The notes beneath the pieces are model-generated. The model was given only the letters and a program-made list of their open reading frames with translations. It was not told the DNA's origin and did no database searches. A stretch of DNA of 44,368 nt from Pseudomonadota bacterium (GTDB taxonomy: Bacteria > Pseudomonadota > Alphaproteobacteria > UBA6615). The stretch covers positions 1 through 44,368 of the forward strand of contig JAQCFD010000002.1 in the NCBI GenBank assembly GCA_027618305.1, written 5' to 3'. This document shows, one piece after another, positions 5,278-31,400 of this stretch. Position numbers and translations under genes: made by a program. The first letter of the stretch is position 1, and every line of letters starts with the position of its first letter.

Positions 5278-5316
5278 CCGGGGGCACGGCGGACATCGAG
5301 TTAAGCACCTATTTCT

Positions 5317-6303: not shown

Positions 6304-6545
6304 AGCTACCTGCCTTTCGGTCTCCCCGCTTTTGGACCGTCCTGATCCGCGATACGGGACGACTTGGTTGTTTGCGTTGTGATGAAAATAGTTCCGATAA
6401 AAAATGTTAGCAATTTCAATCGTTTACAAATTATTCGAAACTTTCCACGAATTTTAGAGATCGCGAAAAGTCATTGGTTGGTTAAGTACTTCCGGGGTAT
6501 CAAGGCACCGCAACCACTTGCCGGGCAATAATCGTTCGAAATTTC
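6304..6545. promoter_or_regulatory. AT-rich divergent control region between the FecR-domain gene and the ShlB-type gene
   Basis: A clearly AT-rich stretch (e.g. GATGAAAATAGTTCCGATAAAAAATGTTAGCAATTTCAATCGTTTACAAATTATTCGAAAC) in an otherwise GC-rich window. The palindromic hexamer TTCGAA occurs at 6434, 6535 and 6555. Confidence 0.4.
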
Positions 6546-8454: not shown

Positions 8455-9204
8455 ATGCCGTATTATGAAAATGGTGATGTTCGTATCCGTTACGAGGAGG
8501 CCGGGAGCGGCTTCCCGCTGCTGGTCACCCCGGGCGGCGGTCTCAACTCGCGTATCGCCAACTGGCCGACCGCGGTCTTCAACGCGATGGACGCCTTCAA
8601 GGACGATTTTCGCTGCATCACCATGGATCAGCGCAACGCCAATGGCGGCGAGAGTTCAGGGCCGATCGCGCTCGACGATCCCTGGGGCGCCTTCGCCGAC
8701 GATCAGCTTGGGCTGATGGACCATCTGGGCATCCGCGAATTCGCCTATATGGGCTACTGCATCGGCGGCTGCTTCGCCGGAACACTGCTCAAGCGCGCCC
8801 CGGATCGCGTTGTCGCGGCGGTGTTCTGCCAGACGGTGGGGCACCGCCCCGATGACCCCGATGTCATGTACCGGTCCGGACGGGATGTGTGGGCCCCCGA
8901 GCTGCTTGACCGGCGGCCGGACCTGAACCAGGACATGATCGACAAGTATCTGCACGGCCTCTACCGGGTGAACCCCGACTTTCTCTACAGCGTGTCGCGC
9001 GACGTTATCCGCGATTGCCAGACGCCGATCCTGGTGCTGCCGGACGACGTACCGTCCCACCCGCTCCAGACATCGATCGATGTCGCCGCGCTGGCGCCGA
9101 ACGCCGAGATCACGGTCTTTCCCTGGACCGAGCCGCCCGAACTGAAAGAGCGCACCATCGGCCGGGTGCGCAGATTCATCCAGACGCACGCCGCAGGGCG
9201 GTAG
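8455..9204 (+). CDS. Alpha/beta-fold hydrolase with a Cys in the nucleophile elbow (G-Y-C-I-G-G)
   Basis: MPYYENGDVRIRYEEAGSGFPLLVTPGGG... is typical of the alpha/beta hydrolase fold. Nucleophile elbow is MGYCIGGCFAG. Strong SD GAAGGAGG 5 nt before the ATG at 8455, so the track start 8434 (TTG) is an extension. Confidence 0.8.
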   Translation: MPYYENGDVRIRYEEAGSGFPLLVTPGGGLNSRIANWPTAVFNAMDAFKDDFRCITMDQRNANGGESSGPIALDDPWGAFADDQLGLMDHLGIREFAYMGYCIGGCFAGTLLKRAPDRVVAAVFCQTVGHRPDDPDVMYRSGRDVWAPELLDRRPDLNQDMIDKYLHGLYRVNPDFLYSVSRDVIRDCQTPILVLPDDVPSHPLQTSIDVAALAPNAEITVFPWTEPPELKERTIGRVRRFIQTHAAGR

Positions 9205-9890: not shown

Positions 9891-10850
9891 ATGAACATGT
9901 TTCGCACAATGATGGTCGGGGCCGCGGCGCTCGGCCTTGCCGCGGCGGCCACGCCCGCCCAGGCCTTTCCCGACGGGCCGGTCGAGTTCGTCATTCCGTT
10001 CGGCGCCGGCGGCGGCGCGGACATCGAGGGCCGGCTTCTGGCCAAGAAGATGGGCGAGATTCTCGGCGTGCCCTTCACGCCGGTGAACCGTCCCGGCGGC
10101 GGCGGTGCCGTGACCTACACCTACATCAAGAACTCCAAGCCCGATGGACATACGGTGGGGTGGAACTCCACCTCGGTTCTGACGACGACCAATCTCGGCA
10201 ACACGGACTTCGCCTACGACGCGATGGACCATGTCGGCCGGGTTGAGTTCCAGCCCCAGCCCTTCGTCGTCAAGGGCGACGCGAAATGGAACACGTTTGC
10301 GGAGTTTGTCGCCGACTGTAAGGCCGCGCCGGGCACGCTGAAGGTTGCCAATTCCGGCACCGGCAGCGCCACCCACGCCGCCGCCATCCTGCTGATGGAT
10401 GCGGCCGGCTGCAAGGTCGTGCACCTGCCCAAGGGCATTGCGGGCCGCAACAAGTCGGTCCTGAACGGCGAGGCCGATGCGATGATCGCGCCGCTCACGG
10501 GTACCGTGAACCTGACCAATGCCGGAAAGCTGAAGATCCTGCTGATGCCGACGGCCGAGCGCAGCACGGTCTTCCCGGACGTGCCGACCGCCAAGGAAGC
10601 GGGATACGACGTCTCGCTGGATCTGTTCCGCGGCCTTTCGGTGGCTCCGAACACGCCGGACGACATCAAGGCCAAGCTGGCCGATGCGATGACCAAGGCG
10701 GCCAACTCGCCGGAATTCCTGAAGCTCGCCAAGGACAACGGCTTCACCGTGGCCCCGATGGACCACAAGGCGTTCGAGGCGATGCTCGTCGAAGAGAATG
10801 CGAAGGTGAAGGCCATTTTCGCGAGCGCTGGCCTGCTGAAGACCCAGTAA
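9891..10850 (+). CDS. tctC: Tripartite tricarboxylate transporter substrate-binding protein (Bug/TctC family)
   Basis: Signal peptide MNMFRTMMVGAAALGLAAAATPAQA, then FPDGPVEFVIPFGAGGGADIEGR and the rest of a Bug-family fold. Followed by tctB and tctA. Confidence 0.9.
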   Translation: MNMFRTMMVGAAALGLAAAATPAQAFPDGPVEFVIPFGAGGGADIEGRLLAKKMGEILGVPFTPVNRPGGGGAVTYTYIKNSKPDGHTVGWNSTSVLTTTNLGNTDFAYDAMDHVGRVEFQPQPFVVKGDAKWNTFAEFVADCKAAPGTLKVANSGTGSATHAAAILLMDAAGCKVVHLPKGIAGRNKSVLNGEADAMIAPLTGTVNLTNAGKLKILLMPTAERSTVFPDVPTAKEAGYDVSLDLFRGLSVAPNTPDDIKAKLADAMTKAANSPEFLKLAKDNGFTVAPMDHKAFEAMLVEENAKVKAIFASAGLLKTQ

Positions 10851-10856
10851 CCGTGT

Positions 10857-10890
10857 CGCCATGGGCCTGTCTTCGGGCGGGCCCATGGCG
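10857..10890 (+). terminator. Strong intercistronic hairpin between tctC and tctB (attenuator/partial terminator)
   Basis: CGCCATGGGCC (10857-10867) pairs perfectly with GGCCCATGGCG (10880-10890): an 11-bp stem with a 12-nt loop. Confidence 0.5.
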
Positions 10891-10941
10891 GACGCACCGG
10901 GCGTGTTCCGGCCCGTCCCATTCATTCTAGGTGCGATTGTC

Positions 10942-11400
10942 ATGCGACGCCGAAACATCATCGCCGCCGTGGTTCTGCTCGCGCTGGGCGCCGTTTACGG
11001 CGTCCTGACGGCGCAGTTGCCGGTGCGCAGCCTGCCCGACACGCCGGGGCCGCCCTTCTTTCCCTGGATCAACACGATCGTGATTCTCGCCCTTTCGGCC
11101 ACGCTGCTGGTGCAGGGATGGATGGCCGCGGACGGGCCGCTGCCGCCGCAGGCCGCCGGGCGCCGGCGGGCGAGCTGGGCGCTGGGCGTGTTTGTCGTCT
11201 ACCTGGCGATCCTGCCGGGCTTCGGGTTCATCCTCGCGACCGCGCCGTTCTTCGCGGCGCTGATGCTGCTGTTCGGCGAGACGCGGGCGCTGCGCGTCGC
11301 GGCGGGGGCGCTCATCGCGACGGGCCTCCTCTACCTCCTGTTCCGGCACGGATTCAATGTGTATCTGCCGACCGGGCTGCTGAAGGGCATCGTGCCTTGA
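10942..11400 (+). CDS. tctB: Tripartite tricarboxylate transporter small membrane subunit TctB
   Basis: About 150 aa with 4 TM helices (MRRRNIIAAVVLLALGAVYGVLTAQLP...), located between tctC and tctA. The track start 10861 overlaps the hairpin and is probably an extension. Confidence 0.8.
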   Translation: MRRRNIIAAVVLLALGAVYGVLTAQLPVRSLPDTPGPPFFPWINTIVILALSATLLVQGWMAADGPLPPQAAGRRRASWALGVFVVYLAILPGFGFILATAPFFAALMLLFGETRALRVAAGALIATGLLYLLFRHGFNVYLPTGLLKGIVP

Positions 11401-11413
11401 CCGGGACCGAGAC

Positions 11414-12925
11414 ATGAGCCCGGACGTCCTCGCAGGCATCTCCCAGGCGTCGGGATTTCTCGTCCTGCTGACGACGGCGGTGGGCGTGTTCATCGGCCTG
11501 ACCGTCGGCATGATTCCGGGCATGACGATCAGCACCGGCATCATCATCCTGCTGCCGGTGACGTTTGTCCTGTCGGCGGATATTTCCATCGCCTTGCTGC
11601 TGGGTCTCTATGTGGGCGGGATGACCGGTGGCAGTTTCTCGGCCATTCTGCTGAATATTCCGGGCACGCCATCGGCGTCGGCCACGGCGCTCGACGGCTA
11701 TCCCATGTCGGCGCGTGGCGAGGCGGGCCGTGCGCTGGGCATCGCCATCACCTCGAGCTTTATCGGCGGCATGGCAAGCTTCTTCTGCCTGCTGTTCATC
11801 GCACCGCTGCTGGCCGAGGTCGCGCTGAGCTTCCGCACCGAGGACATGTTCGCGCTCGTTTTCTTCGGCATCACAATCATCTGCAGCTTCGCCGCCCAGT
11901 CGCTCGTGAAGGGGTTGTTGTCGGGCGCCATCGGCCTGGCCATCGTCACCATCGGCCAGGACCCGGTGATGGGCACCCAGCGGTTCACCTTCGGCCAGGT
12001 CAACCTGATCGGCGGCATTCACTTCCTGACCGCCATGATCGGGTTGTTCGCAATCCCCCAGCTGGTGAGCAACCTGATGGACGCGGCGGGCGGGGCACAA
12101 CGCATCCAGACCAGGCTGAAGTCGGTGCTGCCGCGGATGTCGGATCTGCGCGCCATCCGCATGCCGGTCACGATCGGTTCCCTCACCGGTGCCTTTCTCG
12201 GCATTCTGCCGGGCGCGGGCGGGCCCATCGCGGCCTTCATCAGCTATGACTACGCGCGCCGCCTCTCCAGGCGCCGGGGCGAGTTCGGGAAGGGCGCGGT
12301 CGAGGGCATCGCGGCGCCGGAATCGGCGAACAACGCGGTCACCGGCGGGGCGCTCATCCCGATGATGACGCTGGGTATTCCCGGCGATCCCGTGACGGCG
12401 ATCCTGATCGGCGCGCTCATCATTCACGGCCTGGCCCCGGGCCCGCTGATGTTTACCGAGCGGGGCGACTTCGCGTTCGGCCTTATCTTCTCCTTCTTCT
12501 GGGCGAATATTTTCAATCTCCTCATTGCGCTGACCGCCCTGCGGGTGCTGGTCAAACTGCTGGCGACGCCGCGCGCGCTTCTGATGCCGACGGTGGCGGT
12601 TTTGTGCGTGATCGGTGCCTTCGCGCTGCGCAACAATTTCTTCGACGTCTATGTGATGCTGTTCTTCGGCTTCGTCGGCCTGGCCATGCGCTGGCTGGAC
12701 ATGCCCGTGGTGCCCCTGCTGCTGGCCCTCGTGCTCGGCGTGCCGCTCGAGGAAAACCTCCGGGTGGCGCTGACGTCCTCCCAGGGCGATATCTCGATCT
12801 TCTTTTCCTCGCCAATCGCTGTGACCTTCCTCGCGCTGTCGGCGCTGTCCATCATCTGGTCGCTGCGCGCGGCCCGGCTCCGGAAGAACGCGGCGCCGCC
12901 ATCCCCCAAGGAGAGTTCATCATGA
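11414..12925 (+). CDS. tctA: Tripartite tricarboxylate transporter large permease TctA
   Basis: 503-aa polytopic protein with TctA-typical blocks (GMIPGMT, GGSFSAILLNIPGTPSASATALDGYPM, LGIPGDPVTA). Confidence 0.9.
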   Translation: MSPDVLAGISQASGFLVLLTTAVGVFIGLTVGMIPGMTISTGIIILLPVTFVLSADISIALLLGLYVGGMTGGSFSAILLNIPGTPSASATALDGYPMSARGEAGRALGIAITSSFIGGMASFFCLLFIAPLLAEVALSFRTEDMFALVFFGITIICSFAAQSLVKGLLSGAIGLAIVTIGQDPVMGTQRFTFGQVNLIGGIHFLTAMIGLFAIPQLVSNLMDAAGGAQRIQTRLKSVLPRMSDLRAIRMPVTIGSLTGAFLGILPGAGGPIAAFISYDYARRLSRRRGEFGKGAVEGIAAPESANNAVTGGALIPMMTLGIPGDPVTAILIGALIIHGLAPGPLMFTERGDFAFGLIFSFFWANIFNLLIALTALRVLVKLLATPRALLMPTVAVLCVIGAFALRNNFFDVYVMLFFGFVGLAMRWLDMPVVPLLLALVLGVPLEENLRVALTSSQGDISIFFSSPIAVTFLALSALSIIWSLRAARLRKNAAPPSPKESSS

Positions 12926-13935
12926 GTAGCAAACCCCTTCGCGTCGCCTCCGTCGGTCTCGGCTGGTGGTCCGATGTCCTGGCCGACGCGGCCGGCCGCA
13001 CCGGCGGGCGGGTCGAGATCGCGTCCTGCTTCACCCGATCCGAGGAGAAGCGCCAGGCCTTCGCCGCGAAGTACAATTGCGGGGCGGCGGCGAGCCTCGA
13101 CGAGATTCTGAACGACGATTCGATCGACGCGATCATCAACACCACGCCGAACCATGTGCATCTGGAGACGACCGCGGCGGCGGCCGGGGCCGGCAAGCAT
13201 GTGTTCCTCGACAAGCCGGTGGCCAACACGATCGGCGAGGCCCGCGCGATCACCAAGGTGTGCGCCGATGCGGGCGCGGTCCTGTCGGTCGGCTACCAGC
13301 GCCGGCGGGAAAGCCATTTTCGCTGGATCCAGGACAGGATCACCGCCGGGGAGTTCGGCACGCTGGTGCAGGCCGAGGCGAATATCAGCCGCGACCGGGC
13401 CGGCCAGTTCGAACTCGGCCATTGGCGCTATACCGCCGAGGGCATGCCCGGCGGCGTGATGCTGCAGATCGGGCTGCACTATGTCGATGTGCTGACCATG
13501 CTGCTCGGCCCGGTCGAATCCGTCTCGGGCATGGCCTCCCAGCTGGTGTTGCCCGGCGACAACCCGGATGTCGGCTCGCTGATGATGAAGCACGAGAACG
13601 GGGCCGTGTCGTCGCTGTCGACCAGTTATGCGTCGGCGTCCGAATATTATCTGATGAACATCTACGGCAAGAAGATGAGCGCCTACTACAACCTGTTCGA
13701 CGGGCTGCGCTATCTCCATCAGGGCGACACGGACCAGCAGCCGGTGGCGGTCGAGAAGAACGACGCCATCGCCGAGCAGCTGATTGAGTGGGCCAATGCC
13801 GTTTCGGGCGAGGGTGAACCCGAGGTGGGCGGCGAGAGCGCCATGACGTCGCTGGCCGTGGTCAAGGCCGGGATCAGGTCGGTCGCCGAGGGACGGCATG
13901 TGACCGTGGCGGAGATTCTCGCCGGCGACGATTGA
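12922..13935 (+). CDS. Gfo/Idh/MocA-family NAD(P)-dependent oxidoreductase
   Basis: MSSKPLRVASVGLGWWSDVLADA...AIINTTPNHVHLETTAAAAGAGKHVFLDKPVANT has the Rossmann and EKP-like motifs of the family. The ATG at 12922 overlaps the tctA stop (ATGA). The upstream part of track ORF 12604..13935 is a frame-shadow inside tctA. Confidence 0.85.
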   Translation: MSSKPLRVASVGLGWWSDVLADAAGRTGGRVEIASCFTRSEEKRQAFAAKYNCGAAASLDEILNDDSIDAIINTTPNHVHLETTAAAAGAGKHVFLDKPVANTIGEARAITKVCADAGAVLSVGYQRRRESHFRWIQDRITAGEFGTLVQAEANISRDRAGQFELGHWRYTAEGMPGGVMLQIGLHYVDVLTMLLGPVESVSGMASQLVLPGDNPDVGSLMMKHENGAVSSLSTSYASASEYYLMNIYGKKMSAYYNLFDGLRYLHQGDTDQQPVAVEKNDAIAEQLIEWANAVSGEGEPEVGGESAMTSLAVVKAGIRSVAEGRHVTVAEILAGDD

Positions 13936-14059
13936 ATGCGGCGTCCTGTTGCATCGCGCGAAACGAAAACGACCGGCGGTGAGGCCGGGCGCTTCCAAAG
14001 GTTGGTCTTAGGGAGGTTGAGGATTCGCGGCTAACCGGCGTCGCGAAGCCACGCGGCGG

Positions 14060-14200
14060 GGGTGCGGCTTTCGTAAATTTTCTGGCCGACCCGGCAGAGG
14101 AAATCGAACATCGTGGAACTCCATCTTTTGTTGCGTTGACCTGAGTACGGAGCGGACGTGCTTCTGGATGCGTGTTTCGCGCATGGCTCTCGTGTGAAGA
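14060..14200 (+). pseudogene. Decayed remnant of a DCC/DUF393 gene 3' end (part of a segmental duplication)
   Basis: By-eye colinear patches shared with the 3' part of the intact DCC gene (about 15130-15290). Examples: GGCTTTCG..CTGGC..ATCG..GTGGAAC.CCAT..TTGT..TGACCTG..GCGTG...CGCGCATGGCTC.CGTGTGAAGAC in copy 1, versus GGTTTCGCTGGC..ATCG..GTGG..GAACCATTTGTATGACCTG..GCGTGCGGCGCATGGCTCGTGCGTGAGAC. There are multiple indels and no intact frame. Boundaries are approximate. Confidence 0.35.
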
Positions 14201-14223
14201 CCGCATGCGCGGTTTGCGGGATA

Positions 14224-14250
14224 TGATCCACCCCCGGCGGTCGGGCGTAG
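14224..14250 (+). promoter_or_regulatory. Candidate ECF-type promoter TGATCC-N16-CGTAG (copy 1)
   Basis: TGATCC at 14224-14229, 16-nt spacer, CGTAG at 14246-14250. Lies 30 nt upstream of the ATG at 14280. Confidence 0.45.
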
Positions 14251-14279
14251 ACGGGTCAACGGAACAACAGGAGACAAAG

Positions 14280-14573
14280 ATGCTCGATCTTTACCGCACG
14301 ATCATGGACTCGGACCGCAACCCCTTGAATGCGCTGCCGCGCGCGCAGCGCTTTCAGATCATGGTGGTGCTCAGCCTCATGTGGACGTCGATCTTCTGCG
14401 CCGCCGCCGGTGCCTGGTTCTGGTATGGAGAGCTACTCTTCGCGCATGTTTTGTTTGCTCTAGGTTTCGCATTCACTGGTGCCACGTTCCATAGCGCATC
14501 GAAGCTGGCAACGTATCGCGATCACCCGAGCGCGGACGGGACGGCGCGTTACGACGACGTCTGGGGCGCCTAG
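14280..14573 (+). CDS. Small two-TM membrane protein, paralog 1 (97 aa), unknown family
   Basis: MLDLYRTIMDSDRNPLNALPRAQRFQIMVVLSLMWTSIFCAAAGAWFWYGELLFAHVLFALGFAFTGATFHSASKLATYRDHPSADGTARYDDVWGA. SD AGGAGA 6 nt before the ATG at 14280. 82 of 97 aligned residues are identical to the product of 15361..15657. The track start 14172 is an extension. Confidence 0.7.
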   Translation: MLDLYRTIMDSDRNPLNALPRAQRFQIMVVLSLMWTSIFCAAAGAWFWYGELLFAHVLFALGFAFTGATFHSASKLATYRDHPSADGTARYDDVWGA

Positions 14574-14588
14574 AATAAAGCCTTTCCG

Positions 14589-14894
14589 ATGGAAATCATT
14601 CAACACCTGGCGGTGCCGGTCTCCGATATCGACGTCGCCCTCACCTGGTATGGCGCGCGGTTCGATTTCGAAATCGTGTATGCCGACGAAAGCTGGGCGC
14701 TGCTCCAGTTCGCGAATGTTGCGCTGGCGCTTGTGCTGCGCGATGCGCATCCGCCGCACTTTGCGGTCGCCCGTGAGGACGCCGAGCGCCATGGTCGCCT
14801 GACGCCGCATCGGGATGGGACCGCGTCCGTCTATATCCACGATCCCTGGAACAATGCGATCGAGATCATGAAACCTTCGCCGGGTGCCGAATGA
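14589..14894 (+). CDS. VOC (glyoxalase/bleomycin-resistance/dioxygenase) family protein
   Basis: 101 aa. MEIIQHLAVPVSDIDVALTWYGARFDFEIVY...HFAV...VYIHDPWNNAIEI matches the beta-alpha-beta-beta-beta module pattern of single-domain VOC proteins. Confidence 0.7.
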   Translation: MEIIQHLAVPVSDIDVALTWYGARFDFEIVYADESWALLQFANVALALVLRDAHPPHFAVAREDAERHGRLTPHRDGTASVYIHDPWNNAIEIMKPSPGAE

Positions 14895-15283
14895 TCCAGG
14901 GGTCCCGTCTCACCGTGTTCTTCGACGGCGGGTGTCCCCTGTGTGCGCGGGAGATTGCCTTCTACCGGCGCCGGCGCAACGCCGGTGACATCGATTGGGT
15001 CGATGTGGACGGCCTCGACGGACCGGAAGCCGCACCCGGTCTGACGAAAGCGCGCGCGCTGGGGCGGTTTCATGTACGCGCAGCGGACGGGCGCATGGTT
15101 GATGGCGGGGAGGCCTTTGCCCTGCTTTGGTCCGCCCTTCCGGGGTTTCGCTGGCTCGGCACGATCGGCCGGTTTCGCCCGGGCCTGTGGTGCCTGAACC
15201 ATTTGTATGACCTGTTTCTGCATCTGCGCCCGTGGCTGCAACGCCGGGCTGCGGCACGCGTGCGGCGCATGGCTCGTGCGTGA
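14891..15283 (+). CDS. DCC/DUF393-family thiol-disulfide oxidoreductase
   Basis: LTVFFDGGCPLCAREIAFYRRR contains the D-x-x-C-x-x-C signature at the expected N-terminal position. The ATG overlaps the VOC stop (ATGA). Confidence 0.8.
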   Translation: MIQGSRLTVFFDGGCPLCAREIAFYRRRRNAGDIDWVDVDGLDGPEAAPGLTKARALGRFHVRAADGRMVDGGEAFALLWSALPGFRWLGTIGRFRPGLWCLNHLYDLFLHLRPWLQRRAAARVRRMARA

Positions 15284-15308
15284 GACTCGCATGTGCGCTG
15301 GCGGGAAG

Positions 15309-15335
15309 TGATCCGGGCTGTTGATCGCCGCGTAG
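15309..15335 (+). promoter_or_regulatory. Candidate ECF-type promoter TGATCC-N16-CGTAG (copy 2)
   Basis: TGATCC at 15309-15314, 16-nt spacer of unrelated sequence, CGTAG at 15331-15335. Lies 26 nt upstream of the ATG at 15361. Confidence 0.45.
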
Positions 15336-15360
15336 GGAGGTCTGTCGATCAAAGGAGACG

Positions 15361-15657
15361 ATGATGTTTGAACTCTACCGCACGGTCATGGATTCCGACC
15401 GCAACCCGCTCAACAATCTGCCGCGCGCGCAGCGCTTCCAAATCATGGTTGTGCTCAGCCTGATGTGGACCACGATCTTCTGCACCGCCGCCGGGGCATG
15501 GTTTTGGTATGGAGAGCTGCTCTTCGCGCATGTACTGGTCGCTTTGGGCGTCGCCTTGACGGGCGCGACGTTCCACACGGCCGCGAAACAGTCGACCTAT
15601 CGCGACCACCCGAAGTCAGACGGCACGGCGCGTTACGACGACGTCTGGGGCGCTTGA
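15361..15657 (+). CDS. Small two-TM membrane protein, paralog 2 (98 aa), unknown family
   Basis: MMFELYRTVMDSDRNPLNNLPRAQRFQIMVVLSLMWTTIFCTAAGAWFWYGELLFAHVLVALGVALTGATFHTAAKQSTYRDHPKSDGTARYDDVWGA. SD AAAGGAGA upstream. The stop TGA overlaps the TTG start of the photolyase gene. Confidence 0.7.
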   Translation: MMFELYRTVMDSDRNPLNNLPRAQRFQIMVVLSLMWTTIFCTAAGAWFWYGELLFAHVLVALGVALTGATFHTAAKQSTYRDHPKSDGTARYDDVWGA

Positions 15658-17195
15658 GCGGCACCCGCAGCACCGGGCGGCGGCTGGTCCTCGTTCTCGG
15701 GGATCAGCTCTCGCCCGATGTAGCAGCACTCGCCGCGGCCGATCCGTCCCGCGATGTTGTGCTGATGGCGGAGGTCCGCGACGAGACGACTTATGTCCGC
15801 CACCACAAGAAGAAGATCGCCCTGGTCCTCGCGGCCATGCGCCACTTCGCCAACGAACTCGCCGATGCGGGCTGGACCGTCGATTATGTGAAGTTGGACG
15901 ACCCGGAGAATACCGGCTCGCTGGCCGACGAGGTCGTTCGCGCGCTCGACCGCCACGATTACGATTCGCTGGTCGTTACAGAACCGGGAGAATGGCGCCT
16001 GCGCCAGGCCTTCGAGTCGCTTGCCGACCGTCTCGACGCGTCGCTCGAGATTCTCGAAGACGATCGCTTCGTCTGCAGCCATGCCGATTTCGAGCGATGG
16101 GCCGACGGCCGCACGGCATTGCGGATGGAAAACTTCTACCGGGAGATGCGGCGGCGCACGGGCCTGCTGATGGAGGGCGACGAGCCGGCGGGCGGGCGCT
16201 GGAACTATGATTCCGAGAACCGCAAGCCACCCGCGCCGGACCTCGATATCCCGCCGCCGCGTCGCGCGCGTCCGGACGATGTCACCCGGGAGGTCCTGGG
16301 CCTGGTGGCCGAGCGTTTTGACGATCATTTCGGTGATCTGGAGCCGTTCTGGTTTGCCGTCACCCGACTTAAGGCGGAGCAGGCGTTCACGCGCTTCGTC
16401 GACGAGCGTCTCGCCGCGTTCGGCGATTACCAGGACGCCATGCCGGCGGACGAGGCCTTCGTGTTCCATGGCGTGGTCGGTCTGCATCTCAATCTCGGGC
16501 TGCTCGACCCGCTGGCCGTCTGCCGCCGCGTCGAGGCGGCCTACCGCGACGGTGATGTTCCGCTGAATGCGGCAGAGGGCTTTATCCGCCAGATCATCGG
16601 CTGGCGCGAGTATGTGCGCGGCATCTACTGGCTGCAGGGCCCGGACTATGCGAACGAAAACTTCTTCGGCCACATCCGCGAGCTTCCGGACTTCTACTGG
16701 AGCGCTGACACGGATATGGCCTGCATCCGCGCCTGCGTGAGCCAGACCCGCGAAGAGGCCTATGCGCACCATATCCAGCGGCTGATGGTGACCGGCAATT
16801 TCGCGATGCTCGCCGGCGTGCGCCCGGCCGCGGTGCATGAATGGTACCTGGCGGTATATGCCGACGCTTATGAGTGGGTCGAGCTGCCCAACACGCTGGG
16901 CATGAGCCAGTTCGCCGATGGCGGGTTGCTGGCGTCCAAGCCCTACGCGGCGAGCGGCAACTACATCAACAAGATGTCCGACTATTGCGGGTCGTGTCGA
17001 TACGCTGTCACGCGCAAGACCGGGGAGGATGCCTGCCCCTTCAACTATCTCTACTGGGACTTCCTCGACCGCCATCGCGACAAGCTTGAGGATAATCACA
17101 GGCTCGGCCGCGCCTATGCGACATGGGACCGTTTCGATGACGACCGGCGCGCGGCGGTGCGTACCGACGCGGGGGCATTTCTCGCGGGTCTCTAG
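15654..17195 (+). CDS. phrB: Cryptochrome/photolyase-family protein of the FeS-BCP / prokaryotic (6-4) photolyase type (PhrB/CryB-like)
   Basis: LVLVLGDQLS... N-terminus, plus HHKKKIALVLAAMRHF, GGRWNYDSENR, IRQIIGWREYVRGIYW and HHIQRLMVTGNF blocks. Four Cys arranged C-x87-C-x2-C-x12-C (MAC...DYCGSCRYAVTRKTGEDAC) fit a [4Fe-4S] site. There is no ATG between the upstream stop and the conserved N-terminus, so I use TTG at 15654. Track ORF 15465.. is a 5' extension through the small-protein gene. Confidence 0.85.
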   Translation: MSGTRSTGRRLVLVLGDQLSPDVAALAAADPSRDVVLMAEVRDETTYVRHHKKKIALVLAAMRHFANELADAGWTVDYVKLDDPENTGSLADEVVRALDRHDYDSLVVTEPGEWRLRQAFESLADRLDASLEILEDDRFVCSHADFERWADGRTALRMENFYREMRRRTGLLMEGDEPAGGRWNYDSENRKPPAPDLDIPPPRRARPDDVTREVLGLVAERFDDHFGDLEPFWFAVTRLKAEQAFTRFVDERLAAFGDYQDAMPADEAFVFHGVVGLHLNLGLLDPLAVCRRVEAAYRDGDVPLNAAEGFIRQIIGWREYVRGIYWLQGPDYANENFFGHIRELPDFYWSADTDMACIRACVSQTREEAYAHHIQRLMVTGNFAMLAGVRPAAVHEWYLAVYADAYEWVELPNTLGMSQFADGGLLASKPYAASGNYINKMSDYCGSCRYAVTRKTGEDACPFNYLYWDFLDRHRDKLEDNHRLGRAYATWDRFDDDRRAAVRTDAGAFLAGL

Positions 17196-17231
17196 GGACC
17201 ACAGGGGAAGAAGGCGTATGGCGCGAATCAC

Positions 17232-17963
17232 ATGCTGAAAAGTTTCGGATCCGGTTTGAACGTTGCGGTGGCCGGTGCGACCGGCGGTATCGGGGCTGCG
17301 CTCTGCGCGCGGTTCGCGGAGATGCCATCGGTCGATCGTCTGTTCACGCTGTCCCGCGATCCCGGGCCGGAAGCCAGGGATCTGTATCTCGACCTGACTG
17401 ATGAGGCATCGATCGCCGCAGCAGGGGACACCATCCGGTCCCGCGCGGGCACGCTTCACCTGGTTATCGCGGCCACCGGTACCCTGCATGACGGTGGCGA
17501 TTTCCAGCCCGAGAAAAGCTGGCGCGCACTTGATCCGGAGAATCTTGCGCATGCGTTTCGCGTGAATGCGACAGGGCCAGCTCTCTTCGCCAAGCATTTT
17601 CTGCCGTTGCTGGCGCGAGACCGCAAGGCGGCGTTCGCCGCCCTGTCGGCCCGGGTGGGCAGCATTTCCGACAACGCGCTCGGGGGCTGGTACGCCTACC
17701 GCGCTTCCAAGGCGGCGCTCAACATGCTGATCCGCAGCCTGTCGATCGAGCTTGCGCGCCGCAGCCCGCAGGCGTTGTGCGTGGGCCTGCACCCCGGGAC
17801 GGTGGACACGCCGCTGTCGGTCCCGTTTCGTGGCGCGGTGCCGGATGGCCAACTGTTCTCGCCGGACCATGCCGCGGTCTGCCTGTTGGATGTGCTGGAC
17901 GGATTGAGCCCGTTGGATACAGGCGGTGTGTTCGACTGGGCCGGGCAGTCTGTTCCGGCCTGA
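17232..17963 (+). CDS. Short-chain dehydrogenase/reductase (C-factor-like SDR)
   Basis: VAGATGGIGAAL cofactor motif and YRASKAALN catalytic motif; 243 aa. Confidence 0.85.
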   Translation: MLKSFGSGLNVAVAGATGGIGAALCARFAEMPSVDRLFTLSRDPGPEARDLYLDLTDEASIAAAGDTIRSRAGTLHLVIAATGTLHDGGDFQPEKSWRALDPENLAHAFRVNATGPALFAKHFLPLLARDRKAAFAALSARVGSISDNALGGWYAYRASKAALNMLIRSLSIELARRSPQALCVGLHPGTVDTPLSVPFRGAVPDGQLFSPDHAAVCLLDVLDGLSPLDTGGVFDWAGQSVPA

Positions 17964-17982
17964 CCCTATTGCCGATTTGCGG

Positions 17983-18009
17983 CAATCCATTCGCCGCCGC
18001 GGCACGTAT
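17983..18009 (+). promoter_or_regulatory. Degenerate copy of the bipartite motif (CAATCC-N16-CGTAT) upstream of rpoH-like gene
   Basis: CAATCC at 17983-17988, 16-nt spacer, CGTAT at 18005-18009. Lies 38 nt before the ATG at 18047. Preceded by hairpin ATTGCCG-atttg-CGGCAAT (17968-17986) directly after the SDR stop. Confidence 0.3.
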
Positions 18010-18046
18010 TCAGTGTGCAGACCGTTCACGCACAGGGGGCCAGCAC

Positions 18047-18916
18047 ATGGACCGCACCGCCTTCAATACCGAAAGTATCGTTCGCGACGTATTCGCGGGA
18101 GACATCCTGTCGCGCGAGCGCGAGACCGAGCTCGCGCGCGCGTGGCGCGACGAGCGCAGCCAGGAAGCGCTGGATACGCTTGTGTCGGCATATCTCCGGC
18201 TTGTGGCCTCGATCGCCGGGAAGTATGCGCGGTACGGCTTGTCGAAGGACGATCTCGTCCAGGAAGGCACATACGGGCTGCTGCAGGCGGCACAGAAATT
18301 TGATCCCGAGCGTGGTTTCCGGTTCGGGACCTATGCGGGCTGGTGGGTTCGCGCCGCGATCCAGCGGCACATGCTCGACAATTGGTCGATTGTCCGGTTC
18401 GCCACGTCCCACAACCGCAAGAAGCTTTTCTTCGAACTGCGCAGCCTGCTCAAGCGGATCGATCAGGCCGGTGACCGCCCGTCGGACGCGTCGCTGGTCG
18501 ACACGGCGGCCGCCGAGCTGAATGTCGGGGCCCGCGATGTTGAGGCCCTGATGCCGATGCTCACGGGGCAGGATATGTCTCTCGATATGCCCATGGGGGA
18601 CGACGGAGACATGACTCTCCTCGAGCTGCTCGAAGACGAGGCGGTCGGAACGGAAGAATCGGTGACCATGGCGAACACGGCGCGCGCCCGATCGCGCTGG
18701 CTCAGCATGGCGCTGGATGACCTGCAGGACCGGGATGCCTATATCGTGCGCCGTCGCTATCTTGGCGCGGAGAAGGAAACCCTGTCGGCGATTGCGGACG
18801 ACCTCGGGGTGACCAAGGAGCGGGTGCGCCAGCTTGAGACCCGTGCCCTGGACCGGGTGCGCAGCTATCTGGAGGCAAATTTCCCCGGCGCGGTCGACGA
18901 TATTATCTCGCACTAG
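18047..18916 (+). CDS. rpoH: RNA polymerase sigma-32 (RpoH) family sigma factor
   Basis: Region 2 (DLVQEGTYGLLQAAQKFDPERGFRFGTYAGWWVRAAIQ), an RpoH-box-like NRKKLFFELRSL, and a region 4 HTH (ETLSAIADDLGVTKERVRQLETRAL). The ATG at 18047 gives 289 aa; the track start 17777 overlaps the SDR gene. Confidence 0.85.
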   Translation: MDRTAFNTESIVRDVFAGDILSRERETELARAWRDERSQEALDTLVSAYLRLVASIAGKYARYGLSKDDLVQEGTYGLLQAAQKFDPERGFRFGTYAGWWVRAAIQRHMLDNWSIVRFATSHNRKKLFFELRSLLKRIDQAGDRPSDASLVDTAAAELNVGARDVEALMPMLTGQDMSLDMPMGDDGDMTLLELLEDEAVGTEESVTMANTARARSRWLSMALDDLQDRDAYIVRRRYLGAEKETLSAIADDLGVTKERVRQLETRALDRVRSYLEANFPGAVDDIISH

Positions 18917-18972
18917 GCCCCTCGCCAGGTAGCACCCATGCCCGTAAACTTGTGCGGCGAGGGAGACGCCGC

Positions 18973-19737
18973 ATGCATGAGAAAACAGTAGATGTGCCGA
19001 CCGCTGACGGCATGATGGAAACCTTCATAACCCATCCCGAAGCGGGCGGGCCGTTCCCACCGGTGATCCTGTTCATGGACGTGTGGGGCATCCGCGAGCA
19101 GCTGCGCGACATAGCCCGGCAGATCGCCTGCGTCGGCTACGTTGCGGTGCTGCCGAACCTATACTACCGGATGGGGGGTGAGCACTTCGATTACCGCAAT
19201 CCGGACGGCACGACGGCGTCCCTGAAGGATCTGCCCGAAGCGCAGCAACAGAAAATCCTCGACTATCGAACCCACCTGTCCGACCCGATGGCAATCGCGG
19301 ATGTCGCGGCGCTGCTGGATTACCTGGGCAAGGATGCGGCGGTGCGACCGGGCCCGGCGGGGTCGATCGGATATTGTATGGGCGGCCGCCACGTGATCCG
19401 TGTCGCGGCGGCCTTCCCTGAGACATTCGTTGCCGGCGCCAGCCTGCATGGCACTCATCTTGTGACCGACGCCGGGGATTCGCCTCACCTGGACGCGCCA
19501 AGGGTGCGCGGCATGTATTACAGCGGCTTCGGAGAGAGGGACCATTACACGCCGCCGGAGACGATTGCGGCCGTCGAAACAGCATTTGCCGGACAGGGCT
19601 GCGCCTATACCCAGTTGGTCCACCCCGGTGCGGCACATGGCTATGCCATCTCCGATCGCGACGTGTATGACAAGCAGGCCGCCTACCGGGACTGGGCGCA
19701 CATCTTCGCGATGTATGACCGGATGCTGCGGGCCTGA
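18973..19737 (+). CDS. Dienelactone hydrolase family protein
   Basis: PVILFMDVWGIREQLRDIARQIACVGYVAVLPNLYYR and the Cys-nucleophile elbow GYCMGG are typical of DLH. SD GAGGGAG lies 8 nt before the ATG at 18973. Confidence 0.85.
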   Translation: MHEKTVDVPTADGMMETFITHPEAGGPFPPVILFMDVWGIREQLRDIARQIACVGYVAVLPNLYYRMGGEHFDYRNPDGTTASLKDLPEAQQQKILDYRTHLSDPMAIADVAALLDYLGKDAAVRPGPAGSIGYCMGGRHVIRVAAAFPETFVAGASLHGTHLVTDAGDSPHLDAPRVRGMYYSGFGERDHYTPPETIAAVETAFAGQGCAYTQLVHPGAAHGYAISDRDVYDKQAAYRDWAHIFAMYDRMLRA

Positions 19738-19746
19738 CCGGCGGCC

Positions 19747-20190
19747 CTACGGGCGGTGCATTTCGCGCTGGCGCATGGGCATGGCGTCGATGGTTGCGAA
19801 TAATTCATTTGCAGAAAACGCCGTCTTCGACCGCAATTTAACGCCACCATCCTTGCCGACCAGCAACGCCTGGGCCATATCTCGGGCGACCCGATAGCGC
19901 GCCCGCAGATCGTCGGCGCGGAGTCCCCGCGCGGTCTGCCCGTTGATCGAAACCCGATCGCCGATCACCTCGACCAGGATCATGTCCCGATCGCGGAACG
20001 CATAACCCTTCTCGTCCAGGACCGCCCGCTGCCCTGCGGCCAGCGGGTCGCCGGGCGTGGGGGTGAAGACAATCAGGGGTCGGCTTTTCCAGATATAATT
20101 ATCCATGGACGCCGTTCCGACCTCGCTCGGCGACATGTTGCCGGCGGCCGTCAGGCCGGCCATGAGCAGAAGGGGTTGCAGCAGACCCAT
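19747..20190 (-). CDS. DUF4174-family protein (probably exported)
   Basis: WKSRPLIVFTP...RDRDMILVEV...LVGKDGGVKLRSKTAFSANELFATIDAMPMRQREM matches my recollection of the DUF4174 pattern. Hydrophobic N-terminus. Confidence 0.65.
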   Translation of the reverse strand: MGLLQPLLLMAGLTAAGNMSPSEVGTASMDNYIWKSRPLIVFTPTPGDPLAAGQRAVLDEKGYAFRDRDMILVEVIGDRVSINGQTARGLRADDLRARYRVARDMAQALLVGKDGGVKLRSKTAFSANELFATIDAMPMRQREMHRP

Positions 20191-20199
20191 GCCGTCACG

Positions 20200-20748
20200 C
20201 TAGTCCGCATGCCGTTGGGCCTGGTGCAGGCGAACGAGGTTGGCGCGCGCGTTGCGATTGCCGTTGCGGATGGCCTCTTCGTACCAGTAGATCGCGAGGT
20301 CGACATCCGCGGGGACGCCGAGGCCTTTCTCATACATCGTGCCCAGATTGTTCTGCGCCTTGGCCTCGCCCTGTTCGGCGGCGGCGAGATACCAGAGATG
20401 GGCCAAGCCGTAATCCTGCGCGACCCCGAGACCATGCTGGTAGCTGTGCCCGACCGAGAGCTGCGCGCCGCGATGTCCCCGGATAGCCGCGAGATGGAAC
20501 CAGGCTGCTGCTGCGCCATGGTCCTGGGTGACGTTCTGACCCAGTGAATACATGACGGCGAGGCCGAACTGGGCGTGGGGGTCGCCGAGGACCGCGAGAT
20601 TCTCCCACTGGGCGAACGCCGCGGCGTAGTCCGCCCGGTTATAGGCCGACAGGCCGCGCTCGTAATCATCGGCGAAAGCAGGTGCCGCGGCGCCGAGCCA
20701 CATCGCGCACAGCGCGATGGCGGCGGATCTCAGCCAGGTCTGCAGCAT
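20200..20748 (-). CDS. Sel1-like (SLR/TPR) repeat protein with signal peptide
   Basis: Signal peptide MLQTWLRSAAIALCAMWLGAAAPAFA. Four repeats of the type GDPHAQFGLAVMYSLGQNVTQDHGAAAAWF / AQNNLGTMYEKGLGVPADVDLAIYWY. Confidence 0.85.
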   Translation of the reverse strand: MLQTWLRSAAIALCAMWLGAAAPAFADDYERGLSAYNRADYAAAFAQWENLAVLGDPHAQFGLAVMYSLGQNVTQDHGAAAAWFHLAAIRGHRGAQLSVGHSYQHGLGVAQDYGLAHLWYLAAAEQGEAKAQNNLGTMYEKGLGVPADVDLAIYWYEEAIRNGNRNARANLVRLHQAQRHAD

Positions 20749-20832
20749 GGTCTTGGCCCCCTCATAGACCGGGTGTGTCCCATGTTTCGTCCGCGCGCCG
20801 GTCTGACCGCGCGGTTTTGTGATGCACCATGG

Positions 20833-20859
20833 GTACGTCCGCCTGCGGGGATCGGATCA
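20833..20859 (-). promoter_or_regulatory. Candidate ECF-type promoter TGATCC-N16-CGTAC (copy 3, minus strand)
   Basis: The minus strand reads TGATCC (20859-20854), a 16-nt spacer, then CGTAC (20837-20833). It lies in the 127-nt gap between the DUF1993 and Sel1 genes, about 85 nt upstream of the Sel1 ATG at 20748. Confidence 0.45.
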
Positions 20860-20875: not shown

Positions 20876-21412
20876 CTAACGCTGGCCCTTGAACTTGTCT
20901 TTCATGATGGCGCCCAGATAGTCGATCTTGCCGATGTCGACGCCCTCGTGGCGCAGGATGTCGTAGGCGGTGGTGACGTGGAAATAGAAATGCGCCTTGG
21001 CGAAATGGAGCAGATAGTCCTGCGCCGGCCAGCTCACCTCGCCCAGGCGCACCTTGACCGTGATCGGCCGGTCGGGGTTGCCCTCGAGTTGGTCGGGGTT
21101 GATCGCGTTGATGAAGTTACGCGACGCGGCAATGCGGGCACGGGCCCCGGCGATGCTGGTGTCGGGCTCGGTGGACAATGCCGGCGGTTCGATGCCGGCG
21201 AGCCGCGACATGGCCACAGCGGAATGTTCACAGGCGCGCTGGACCTGGCCCGCGAGTGTGAACATGTCCGGCGCCAGGCGGCGCTCCAACAGTTCGGACT
21301 CGTCGAGACCTTTTTCGGCAGCATAGGCGGCGCCTTGTTCGAGCACATAGTCGAGATTGGTGAGCATCTGGTCGTACACGGGCACGGAGATGCGGTGCAT
21401 GGAGAATGTCAT
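20876..21412 (-). CDS. DUF1993-family protein
   Basis: MTFSMHRISVPVYDQMLTNLDYVLEQGAAYA...HFYFHVTTAYDILRHEGVDIGKIDYLG is the DUF1993 pattern. I chose the start at 21412; the track start 21487 overlaps the upstream gene. Confidence 0.8.
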   Translation of the reverse strand: MTFSMHRISVPVYDQMLTNLDYVLEQGAAYAAEKGLDESELLERRLAPDMFTLAGQVQRACEHSAVAMSRLAGIEPPALSTEPDTSIAGARARIAASRNFINAINPDQLEGNPDRPITVKVRLGEVSWPAQDYLLHFAKAHFYFHVTTAYDILRHEGVDIGKIDYLGAIMKDKFKGQR

Positions 21413-21437: not shown

Positions 21438-22358
21438 TTAGTCGAAACTGAAGCCGATGGTGCGGCAGCGGAAATACAGCCCGCCATCCTGAATGACGAG
21501 AGACAGCATCGGCGTGTCGCCCTCGTTGTGATGCTCGTGAAGTTCGGCGGGCGGCGTGATCATCAGGGCATATTGATGCCAGTCGAGGCGGTTTCCCTCG
21601 ATCACCGAATACACATTGTCGGCCGCGATTGGCAGGGTGAGCGCGACCGAATTGTGCCGGTGGGGGCGCTGAACTCTGTGGGGGTCGAGGGTGTTCATGG
21701 CGAGCTTGATCGTTGGGTGGGCCGCGTCCGCATTCCCGTTGCGCTCGCTGGTCAGATGCAGGGCCCGGCCCGAGGCGTTGGGGTCGGCCGATTGGTCGGC
21801 GCGGACCCGGCCCATCTCGGCGAGGATCTCGGCCATCGGGTAGCGCACGGCGCGGGTGGGGGCCGTCTCCGGTGTGGGCGCCGCCAGCCCGTGAAAGGCG
21901 AGCTCGGGCTCGTTCGTCACCAGCAGCAGCACCGCGCCGGTGGGCCCACCATCGAGGCGGGTCTCGCTGCCGCCGGGCAGGGAGAACACGTCGCCGGACT
22001 GCCAGTCGAAGCTCTCGTCGCCCTTGGTCGCCCGACCGTCGCCGGAAATGACGAAATAGAACTCGCCGCTCGCACGGAAAGACCCGGTCAGGGCCTCACC
22101 GGCGGCAATCCGCGCGTAGCGGGCCAGCATGAGAGGTGTGGTCGCGGGCTCGTTGAGGCCGATTTGGGCGCCGATATCGAGGGATATCCAGCCGGTGGGC
22201 GTGCCGGGTGCCATGGCTTGGTCGCGCTGTGCGACGAACGCCATCTGCGGGATCGGCGGGCGCCCGACCTTGAAGATGTCCCCCAGGCTGTAGTAGCGCG
22301 CCCGCGCCACGACGCCTTCGTCCGCCGCCTGATCCGTGTTGCTGACCGTTCCGTCCAT
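21438..22358 (-). CDS. Bicupin protein, gentisate 1,2-dioxygenase-like
   Basis: Two cupin barrels. The C-terminal one has metal-ligand motifs PHRHNSVALT and PPAELHEHHNEG. SD GGGGAG lies 7 nt before the ATG at 22358; the track start 22646 is an extension. Confidence 0.65.
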   Translation of the reverse strand: MDGTVSNTDQAADEGVVARARYYSLGDIFKVGRPPIPQMAFVAQRDQAMAPGTPTGWISLDIGAQIGLNEPATTPLMLARYARIAAGEALTGSFRASGEFYFVISGDGRATKGDESFDWQSGDVFSLPGGSETRLDGGPTGAVLLLVTNEPELAFHGLAAPTPETAPTRAVRYPMAEILAEMGRVRADQSADPNASGRALHLTSERNGNADAAHPTIKLAMNTLDPHRVQRPHRHNSVALTLPIAADNVYSVIEGNRLDWHQYALMITPPAELHEHHNEGDTPMLSLVIQDGGLYFRCRTIGFSFD

Positions 22359-22488: not shown

Positions 22489-23670
22489 ATGCCAGACACA
22501 ACAGCCGTGACGGCCGCATCGGGTCTGAAATCACGTGCCGCCGCGCTGGAGCCGAGCCTCGCTGCGCGCGCCCAGGCAACAGAACAGCTGCGCCGTATCC
22601 CCGACGAGACGATCGCCGACCTCAAGGCCGCGGGACTGCACCGCATTTGTCAGCCGGCGCGGTTCGGCGGGGCGGAAGCACCGCTTGATGCGGCCTGCGA
22701 TATTGTCGCGGCACTGGCGCGGGGCTGCAGCTCCACCGGTTGGGTGGCGGGTGTCTATACCGACCATCAGATTTTGATCGGCATGTTCGATGACCGGGCC
22801 GCTGACGCCGTGCGGGCTGAGAATCCCGATGCGCTGGTTTCCGCCGGGTTCACCCCCGGGGGGAAGCATGAGCGGGTCGACGGCGGCTGGCGGGTCTCCG
22901 GCAGTTGGGAATGGTCGAGTGGTTGCGACCATGCCGACTGGCTGATCGTGGGCGTGCTGTTGCCGACGGGGCCGGACGGCGCGATCGAGCCGAACTACTG
23001 CATCGTGTCACGCGACGATGTCGTGATCGAAGACAATTGGCATGTGATGGGCCTGGCCGGGACCGGCAGCAAGAATTTGCATGTCGAAAGCGCGGTCGTG
23101 CCTGATTATCGCGCATTGCCGTTTCGGATGGCGGGCGCAGGGGGTGCGGCCAGGGGCCAAACCGACGCGCCGGCGCTTTACCGGTTGCCCCACCCGCCGT
23201 GCGTGCCGTTCCTGCTGGCGGTGCCGTCGCTGGGCATCGCGGAAAGCCTGCTGGATGCCGTGGTCGAACAGATGGCCGGGCGGAGCTCGCGCGGGGTGCG
23301 GGTCGCGGAACACCAGACCCTGCAGGTGCACATCGCCGAGGCTGCCGCCCAGATCGACGCCGCGCGGCTGCTGGTGATGCGCGACACGGGCGAGGCGATG
23401 GCGGCGATGCATGCGCGCCGCGAGCTGACGCTGCTGGAGCGGGCGCGCAACCGTCGCGACCATGCCTATGTGGTGCGCGAATGCCGGGCCGCGGTCGACC
23501 GGTTGTTCACCACCCTGGGCGGCCAGGGCATCTTCCTGGACAACGCCCTGCAGCGGAAGTTCCGCGACATGCACGCCATGAGCGGGCATTTCGCACTGAA
23601 CTGGGATATCGCCGCGACGACCTACGGGCAGGTGGCGCTGGGCATCGACCCGCAAACCAACCTGAAGTGA
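22489..23670 (+). CDS. Acyl-CoA dehydrogenase-fold flavin-dependent monooxygenase (HsaA/DszC/HpaH-like oxygenase component)
   Basis: IPDETIADLKAAGLHRICQPARFGGAEAPLDAACDIVAALARGCSSTGWVAGVYTDHQ and the WRVSGSWEWSSGCDHADW blocks are typical of the ACAD type-2 oxygenase group. No reductase partner is nearby. Confidence 0.7.
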   Translation: MPDTTAVTAASGLKSRAAALEPSLAARAQATEQLRRIPDETIADLKAAGLHRICQPARFGGAEAPLDAACDIVAALARGCSSTGWVAGVYTDHQILIGMFDDRAADAVRAENPDALVSAGFTPGGKHERVDGGWRVSGSWEWSSGCDHADWLIVGVLLPTGPDGAIEPNYCIVSRDDVVIEDNWHVMGLAGTGSKNLHVESAVVPDYRALPFRMAGAGGAARGQTDAPALYRLPHPPCVPFLLAVPSLGIAESLLDAVVEQMAGRSSRGVRVAEHQTLQVHIAEAAAQIDAARLLVMRDTGEAMAAMHARRELTLLERARNRRDHAYVVRECRAAVDRLFTTLGGQGIFLDNALQRKFRDMHAMSGHFALNWDIAATTYGQVALGIDPQTNLK

Positions 23671-30836: not shown

Positions 30837-30857
30837 GATCCGTATCTCCGCGCGGCG

Positions 30858-31307: not shown

Positions 31308-31368
31308 TGAATTCCCCCCCAGGATATCTCGTGGCCGGAATGTTTTGTCGCGGTCATGAACGGGATAA

Positions 31369-31400
31369 CACGCCCCGCCGGATCAAACCGACGGGGCGTG
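31369..31400 (-). terminator. Intercistronic hairpin between tctC and tctB (second system)
   Basis: CACGCCCCG (31369-31377) pairs with CGGGGCGTG (31392-31400): a 9-bp stem with a 14-nt loop. On the minus strand it is followed by TTATCCCGTT. Confidence 0.45.

Follow-up and report, generated by a model that had tools for sequence, protein, structure and literature searches.

Which protein reads a short two-part motif that recurs in front of genes in the genome of an uncultured alphaproteobacterium? The motif, TGATCC-N16-CGTA, has two boxes set 16 nucleotides (nt) apart and occurs in a 44,368-nt stretch of contig JAQCFD010000002.1 (assembly GCA_027618305.1, positions 1 to 44,368 of the forward strand), called the window below. 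An original prediction, made from the letters alone, took the copies for promoters of an extracytoplasmic function (ECF) sigma factor. The copies are very probably promoters read by RNA polymerase carrying an ECF11 sigma factor of the RpoE/sigma-E type that is restrained by ChrR.

An exact search of the window finds three copies, each of them intergenic and directed at the start codon of the next gene, which agrees with the original prediction. Just three of the 53 TGATCC/GGATCA hexamers scanned have CGTA 16 nt further along. The motif spans 26 nt, so the end coordinates first given for it were one base too long. The count is not random: 100 shuffles of the window that preserved dinucleotides contained 0.04 copies on average and 1 at most. 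Gene calls were taken from an identical metagenome contig and from Pfam. They place site 1 between a MocA-type gene and the first of two small membrane genes (TM1), site 2 between a DCC gene and the second small membrane gene (TM2), and site 3 between a DUF1993 and a Sel1 gene.

The relaxed core ATCC-N16-CGTA occurs six times, compared with 0.82 expected. Five of the six copies are intergenic and co-oriented with the next gene, and these lie within 6.7 kb (14146-20859). The earlier tally of three sites and one doubtful site is too low; there are five in all, three exact and two with variant -35 boxes and an intact core.

14146 to 14171, minus strand: putative divergent sigma-E-type promoter, GCATCC-N16-CGTA (variant -35), found in an alignment of relatives
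14224 to 14249, plus strand: putative sigma-E (ECF11) promoter 1, TGATCC-N16-CGTA, found by exact search and in the relatives' alignment
15309 to 15334, plus strand: putative sigma-E promoter 2, TGATCC-N16-CGTA, in a duplicated cassette, found by exact search
17983 to 18008, plus strand: putative sigma-E promoter with variant -35, CAATCC-N16-CGTA
20834 to 20859, minus strand: putative sigma-E promoter 3, TGATCC-N16-CGTA, 17 nt after the DUF1993 stop

The gaps from CGTA to the start codon are 30 nt at site 1 (ATG 14280), 26-29 nt at site 2 (ATG 15361/15364), 38 nt at 17983-18008 (ATG 18047), 85 nt at site 3 (ATG 20748) and 34 nt at the divergent site, which faces an open reading frame (ORF) of 26 amino acids (aa). 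The first four distances had been given correctly before.

The sixth copy of the core (9028-9051) sits within a hydrolase gene. Read as CGATCC-N16-CGTA at 9026-9051, it was considered as a promoter and rejected as a chance match. Three relatives (L003, L004, L005) keep its coding spacer and lose its CGTA, a pattern opposite to that of the real sites. A further string, TGATCC-N16-CGTC, with one mismatch in the -10 box, occurs at 22330-22355 on the plus strand. It falls in the 5' end of a divergent cupin gene and lies 134 nt 5' of an acyl-CoA dehydrogenase gene (22489-23670).

Is the motif found at the same place in other genomes? TM1 and TM2 encode 97-aa proteins, and 80 genomic loci with homologues of these were fetched (L003-L082). 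The exact motif stands 5' of the 97-aa gene in 51 of the 80, and a copy with one mismatch does so in 20 more. CGTA lies at a distance of 25-34 nt from the ATG at 47 of the 51 exact sites. Spacer sequences show no relation to one another, and a logo of 65 non-redundant sites carries information in TGATCC(G) and CGTA only. Behind an exact or one-mismatch motif, the 97-aa gene is promoter-proximal in at least 71 of 80 genomes. It precedes variable cargo, namely a DPRP photolyase gene, a short-chain dehydrogenase (SDR) gene, a DCC gene or a VOC gene.

Evidence for the identity of the reader comes from the genes of the sigma factor itself. A scan of the 97-aa-gene loci for a zinc anti-sigma motif yielded rpoE-chrR pairs, and these pairs were the query with which 80 alphaproteobacterial rpoE-chrR loci were collected (L083-L162). 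Of these, 72 have the exact motif just 5' of rpoE, and 6 others have it with a single mismatch. In another RpoE set of greater diversity the motif is exact in 48 of 80 among the matches listed, and a further rpoE-chrR locus (L166) has the exact motif as well. Thus, in Alphaproteobacteria, the string serves the ChrR-type sigma factor as its autoregulatory promoter. In 10 loci of L083-L162 a second exact motif faces away from rpoE, towards a gene of about 446 aa that resembles flavin adenine dinucleotide (FAD)/amine oxidases; this divergent arrangement resembles the one reported for Rhodobacter sphaeroides.

The 97-aa gene and the sigma factor can also be found together. At least three metagenome-assembled genomes (MAGs) with the 97-aa gene, all more distant carriers (CAJWOT01, CAYYUG01, JAPPPC01), also encode rpoE-chrR, and in one locus (L021) the pair lies 2.2 kb from the 97-aa gene. 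Other genes behind exact motifs in the fetched loci are typical regulon members. They encode fasciclin-domain proteins, glutathione peroxidase, a photolyase of the cyclobutane pyrimidine dimer type, TspO, a DCC1-like protein (a homologue in L008) and a 103-aa VOC protein homologous to that of the window (in L111, with its own exact motif). Within L083-L162, TspO, fasciclin and UbiX-like genes have the exact motif in single loci each. As a control, 407 kb of unrelated DUF4174 loci from many phyla contained no exact motif.

The promoters may also be read by another sigma factor, either the sigma-32 paralogue encoded in the cluster, acting on its own gene, or an ECF sigma from a different group that lacks a ChrR partner. 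A sigma gene does lie mid-cluster (18047-18916) with a motif copy upstream, and no cognate ECF11 sigma of this lineage is among the matches listed in pattern-limited scans. However, promoters of the sigma-32 type are unlike TGATCC ... CGTA, those of E. coli reading CTTGAA ... CCCCATNT. The promoter logos of RpoHI and RpoHII are related to this E. coli type (PMC3441632). The motif also precedes the 97-aa gene in loci without an adjacent rpoH, and its presence before 72 of 80 rpoE-chrR operons identifies the reader wherever the pair is present. Another sigma factor is thus an unlikely reader, and a ChrR-restrained ECF11 sigma is preferred.

The same string is known from published regulons, and the TGATCC-type consensus first assumed for ChrR-partnered sigma factors equals the published one (PMC5507510, PMC4336711, PMC5036791). 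In Pseudomonas syringae, chromatin immunoprecipitation sequencing (ChIP-seq) and quantitative reverse-transcription PCR gave the stated consensus TGATCCnnnnnnnnnnnnnnnnCGTA for PSPTO_1043, a ChrR-partnered ECF sigma whose targets include rpoE-chrR itself, phrB and a glyoxalase gene (PMC5507510). The variant -35 boxes aGATCC, cGATC and gcATCC are bound and induced there, the gcATCC variant being ChIP-bound and induced 7-fold (PMC5507510); they provide a precedent for the CAATCC and GCATCC sites. In Shewanella, RpoE2 promoters have TGATCC and CGTAAT/CGTATT, with transcription starts placed just downstream of the CGTA box by primer extension and reverse-transcription PCR (PMC4336711). Finally, RpoE promoters of R. 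sphaeroides read TGATCC(N15)GCGTA (PMC5036791). In the window, TGATCC would accordingly be the -35 element and CGTA the -10 core, joined by a 16-nt spacer that is free in sequence, and transcription would start just downstream of CGTA.

A motif of two conserved half-sites at a fixed spacing may alternatively be the operator of a DNA-binding repressor or activator, and conserved GCATGGCTC blocks nearby do suggest further protein binding sites. The halves, however, are not repeats of each other, direct or inverted. The motif always points the same way, with CGTA at a fixed 25-34 nt from the start codon, and its 16-nt gap is the geometry of a -35/-10 promoter. Since primer extension in Shewanella places transcription starts just downstream of the same box (PMC4336711), an operator is very improbable, and the motif is taken as a sigma-E-type promoter in what follows.

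The TM1 and TM2 proteins are 85% identical, and the duplicated unit starts some 48 nt ahead of the -35 box and takes in the whole 97-aa gene (14176-14573 and 15262-15657). Between the two copies the boxes are 100% identical and the spacer about 41%; the upstream flank (48 nt) reaches 74%, the leader 63% and the coding region 81%. Outside the unit identity drops to a background of about 47%. Because this similarity extends upstream through the boxes, both site 1 and site 2 derive from a single promoter-plus-gene cassette. As the boxes are fully conserved and the spacer is randomised, the duplication doubles as a footprint.

Relatives show what preceded the duplication. A single TM copy heads one operon there, either TM-DPRP-VOC-DCC-SDR (L012, L009, L010) or TM-DPRP-SDR (L003). 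Thus the duplication, which is tandem-like, split one operon into TM1-VOC-DCC and TM2-DPRP-SDR. The single-copy TM protein of L003 is 95% identical to TM2 and 87% identical to TM1.

Several points weigh against a ChrR-restrained sigma-E as the reader. Among the genes of the 44-kb window there is neither an ECF sigma nor a ChrR, so the sigma would be encoded elsewhere; the original prediction had placed it outside, and the window gene calls bear this out. No rpoE-chrR pair from the five closest MAGs (CBDHEC01, JBMYRB01, PBPM01, PBWR01, PBMH01) is among the matches listed, a result that is uninformative, not least since the ChrR scan was pattern-limited: ChrR was sought with two strict peptide patterns, which miss ChrR genes reading IATHAALCP. 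The closest relative among the genome contigs searched has a TM protein only 87% identical. Sequencing runs that contain the window sequence are DNA metagenomes, with no RNA among them. Two of the sites, CAATCC and GCATCC, have non-canonical -35 boxes. Finally, sites 1 and 2 share ancestry and leave only two independent exact sites.

This last point is also what would favour a chance match inflated by local duplication. Two independent matches against 0.04 expected are still unlikely, though, and the control loci lack any copy. Chance is effectively refuted by the boxes being kept over dozens of genomes while the spacers are randomised, and it is hardly credible as an explanation. Promoters read by a ChrR-restrained sigma-E remain by far the best account.

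How would such a sigma factor act on the cluster? The zinc anti-sigma ChrR would hold the group-IV (ECF11) sigma-E inactive. Inducers in model systems are singlet oxygen, peroxides and UV-A (PMC6852236). By extension from such systems, singlet oxygen, organic peroxide or UV-A/blue light would free sigma-E from ChrR, and the freed sigma would fire five predicted transcription units of the 7-kb cluster.

The first unit would be a leftward transcript of about 175 nt that encodes the 26-aa peptide. It belongs to the divergent site; its parts and the features around them are as follows.

13965 to 13990, minus strand: predicted intrinsic terminator of the small-ORF transcript, a GC-rich hairpin followed by a T run
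14031 to 14111, minus strand: 26-aa small ORF MFDFLCRVGQKIYESRTPAAWLRDAG, stop codon included in the coordinates, conserved and with an AAGGAG ribosome-binding site
14178 to 14209, no strand assigned: conserved blocks GCGCATGGCTC ... CGCATGCGC, lying between the -35 boxes of the divergent promoters
12922 to 13935, plus strand: MocA-type oxidoreductase gene

The pattern TACG-N16-GGATG(C/T) is kept in 9-11 relatives and reads (G/A)CATCC-N16-CGTA on the minus strand. Its distance is always 33-36 nt to the small ORF downstream of it and 45-52 nt to the -35 box of the TM gene. This promoter was also considered for the MocA gene, which is ruled out by the position of MocA on the plus strand.

Eleven loci share the ORF, namely the window and ten loci from MAGs; it was not found in L076 (Reyranella aquatilis KCTC 52223), a cultured carrier of the 97-aa gene. 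The terminator sequence GCCCGGCC...GGCCGGGCGTTTT is likewise conserved among relatives. The gene calls of the identical metagenome contig do not include the ORF. Pairwise differences at codon positions 1, 2 and 3 number 437, 377 and 709, and the third position being the most variable is the signature of a translated peptide. A structured small RNA was considered for the same transcript and rejected: it had no match in Rfam, its folding z-score was 0.13 (apart from the terminator, no better than shuffles), and the codon pattern favours a peptide.

The blocks between the two -35 boxes consist of tGCATgGCTC and a second GCATG within (C/T)GCATG(T/C)GC. They are retained in relatives and in the duplicated copy (15263-15296), where neighbouring spacers are scrambled. 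No known consensus was recognised in blocks 14178-14209. A second regulator might bind the GCATGGCTC block that separates the divergent promoters.

The second unit would be TM1-VOC-DCC, and the third would be TM2 followed by a (6-4)-photolyase/CryB-like gene and an SDR gene.

14280 to 14573, plus strand: small membrane gene TM1, 97 aa, from the gene call
14589 to 14894, plus strand: VOC/glyoxalase-fold protein gene (PF00903), 15 nt after TM1
14891 to 15283, plus strand: DCC1-like thiol-disulfide oxidoreductase gene (PF04134, 2.3e-22), its start overlapping the VOC stop by 4 nt
15364 to 15657, plus strand: small membrane gene TM2, 97 aa from ATG 15364, with an alternative ATG at 15361
15654 to 17195, plus strand: predicted FeS-BCP/CryPro photolyase gene (PhrB/CryB family), likely TTG start, Pfam DPRP 5.2e-87
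17232 to 17963, plus strand: SDR gene, 36 nt after the photolyase gene

Each 97-aa protein contains two hydrophobic segments. Neither protein matches a family in Pfam or NCBIfam, and all their database homologues are labelled 'hypothetical'.

Homology of the DPRP protein to the iron-sulfur (6-4) photolyase PhrB and to CryB extends over its full length. The protein aligns with Agrobacterium tumefaciens PhrB (4DJA) at E = 7.7e-199 and with R. sphaeroides CryB (3ZXS) at 2.3e-194, covering residues 10-511 and beginning at query residue 9-10. The metagenome contig calls the gene from ATG 15765. Because the Pfam domain and the PDB alignments begin before this ATG, a start at the TTG at 15654 is more probable; this codon shares bases with the TM2 stop (TTGA). 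This overlap suggests that TM2 and the photolyase gene are translationally coupled, as they probably would be in the third unit.

The fourth unit would contain a sigma-32 paralogue that is RpoHII-like, perhaps together with a dienelactone hydrolase gene, and would extend the response as a sigma cascade. The fifth would be the Sel1-DUF4174 pair.

18047 to 18916, plus strand: gene for a predicted sigma-32 family sigma factor, RpoHII-like
18973 to 19737, plus strand: dienelactone hydrolase gene, 56 nt after rpoH
19747 to 20190, minus strand: DUF4174 protein gene (Pfam), 9 nt after the Sel1 gene
20200 to 20748, minus strand: Sel1-repeat protein gene, with an N-terminal signal-like segment in the protein
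20876 to 21412, minus strand: DUF1993 gene
21438 to 22358, minus strand: cupin gene

Both the rpoH site and the Sel1/DUF4174 site are retained in L003, L004, L012 and L023 as nnATCC-N16-CGTA with diverged spacers. Before rpoH, these four syntenic relatives have TAATCC, TAATCC, AGATCC or CGATCC ahead of N16-CGTA, at an equal distance from the ATG. The CAATCC copy of the window had been noticed in the original prediction and called degenerate. It was found again 38 nt from the ATG, and its retention in four relatives makes it a conserved site.

By its sequence, gene 18047-18916 is a member of the sigma-32 family. Its product scores 243 bits against NCBIfam PRK06596 (cut-off 241), while equivalog models remain under their cut-offs; it has the 'RpoH box' RKKLFFELR, and its best relative in the PDB is RpoH. 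The order rpoH-dienelactone hydrolase also occurs in L003, L004 and L012, and the hydrolase gene is possibly co-transcribed with rpoH.

The Sel1/DUF4174 site reads AGATCC, AAATCC or AGATCC-N16-CGTA in relatives. Upstream of 80 DUF4174 homologues from other clades and phyla the exact motif is absent, and just two of them have a one-mismatch site, 675-821 nt off. DUF4174 as a general sigma-E target was rejected on these grounds, and the Sel1/DUF4174 pair is thus a lineage-specific recruit. The local regulon that was first proposed is supported in respect of its conserved sigma-E-type sites, the one before rpoH included; Sel1/DUF4174 is not a general member of such a regulon.

The analysis allows gene regulation in an uncultured marine alphaproteobacterium to be annotated with confidence: a compact light/photo-oxidative stress island is very likely wired to a ChrR-type sigma-E. 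Within the island, the RpoHII-like factor would carry the response on as a sigma cascade, and a CryB/PhrB-type FeS photolyase would be controlled directly. It illustrates how a regulon may grow: a cassette duplication split an operon, and Sel1-DUF4174 was recruited in this lineage only.

The cross-genome test marks the 97-aa family and the 26-aa peptide as unnamed genes tightly linked to sigma-E. A tentative and rather doubtful idea is that these two uncharacterised small proteins head the sigma-E response of a marine clade as undescribed parts of photo-oxidative sensing or repair. For instance, they could act as a membrane sensor or quencher of singlet oxygen, or as a partner of the photolyase/cryptochrome.

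Other features of the window lie apart from the cluster. An HTTM domain and a second DCC1-like domain are fused in one protein (1048-2859, minus strand), with no sigma-E-type motif upstream. A CHASE2-PAS histidine kinase (2950-5277, minus strand), a FecR-domain protein (5317-6303, minus strand) and a POTRA/ShlB-type outer-membrane protein (6546-8288, plus strand) are encoded next to each other. The FecR-domain protein was considered as an anti-sigma factor and rejected, as it adjoins the CHASE2 kinase and the ShlB/POTRA gene and no sigma gene; module 2950-8288 is a signalling module unrelated to the sigma-E cluster. The window further contains a tRNA gene (550-621, plus strand, Rfam 73 bits), a gene for an NAD-specific glutamate dehydrogenase of 1624 aa (34864-39738, plus strand) and two separate sets of TctABC tricarboxylate transporter genes (about 9891-12925 and 29295-32481).

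How does the cluster compare with known systems? The RpoE2-ChrR system of Shewanella oneidensis has TGATCC-N16-CGTA(A/T)T promoters, and its targets include an operon in which phr, a DPRP-type photolyase gene, precedes an SDR gene, the same pair as the genes at 15654-17963 (PMC4336711). Unlike the organism studied here, Shewanella is a gammaproteobacterium, and its phr is not reported to follow a small membrane gene. Its targets pgpD and the Lon-domain protease gene are absent from this window.

In P. syringae, PSPTO_1043 (RpoE-Rsp) with ChrR uses the same consensus and has a glyoxalase-family gene and phrB as targets (PMC5507510). Its targets katG, diguanylate cyclase and bacteriophytochrome are not seen in this window.

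R. sphaeroides, unlike this uncultured marine organism known from metagenomes alone, has phrA as the photolyase gene among its sigma-E targets (PMC6852236); here a FeS-BCP/CryB-type photolyase gene would be controlled directly. The target lists compared for R. sphaeroides contain neither the 97-aa membrane protein nor the 26-aa peptide or the Sel1-DUF4174 pair. The core furan-fatty-acid genes and rpoE-chrR are not within this window. Pos19, which its authors found only in R. sphaeroides strains, is a small coding RNA driven by a sigma-E promoter (PMC5036791), and the 26-aa ORF transcript would resemble it in this respect by analogy only.

The two systems are alike in promoter architecture and in having a second sigma factor of the RpoH family as a target of RpoE-ChrR (ECF11) (PMC5036791, PMC3441632). 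The original prediction had rightly named rpoHII as controlled by Rhodobacter sigma-E; the gene is a direct RpoE target in R. sphaeroides (PMC3441632). By analogy, the sigma-E site before the RpoHII-like gene would match the RpoE-to-RpoHII cascade of that species. Counterparts of the target genes occur in known regulons, a DPRP photolyase with an SDR in Shewanella, a glyoxalase in P. syringae and rpoHII in R. sphaeroides. The cluster is a further instance of a well-described promoter class and regulon.

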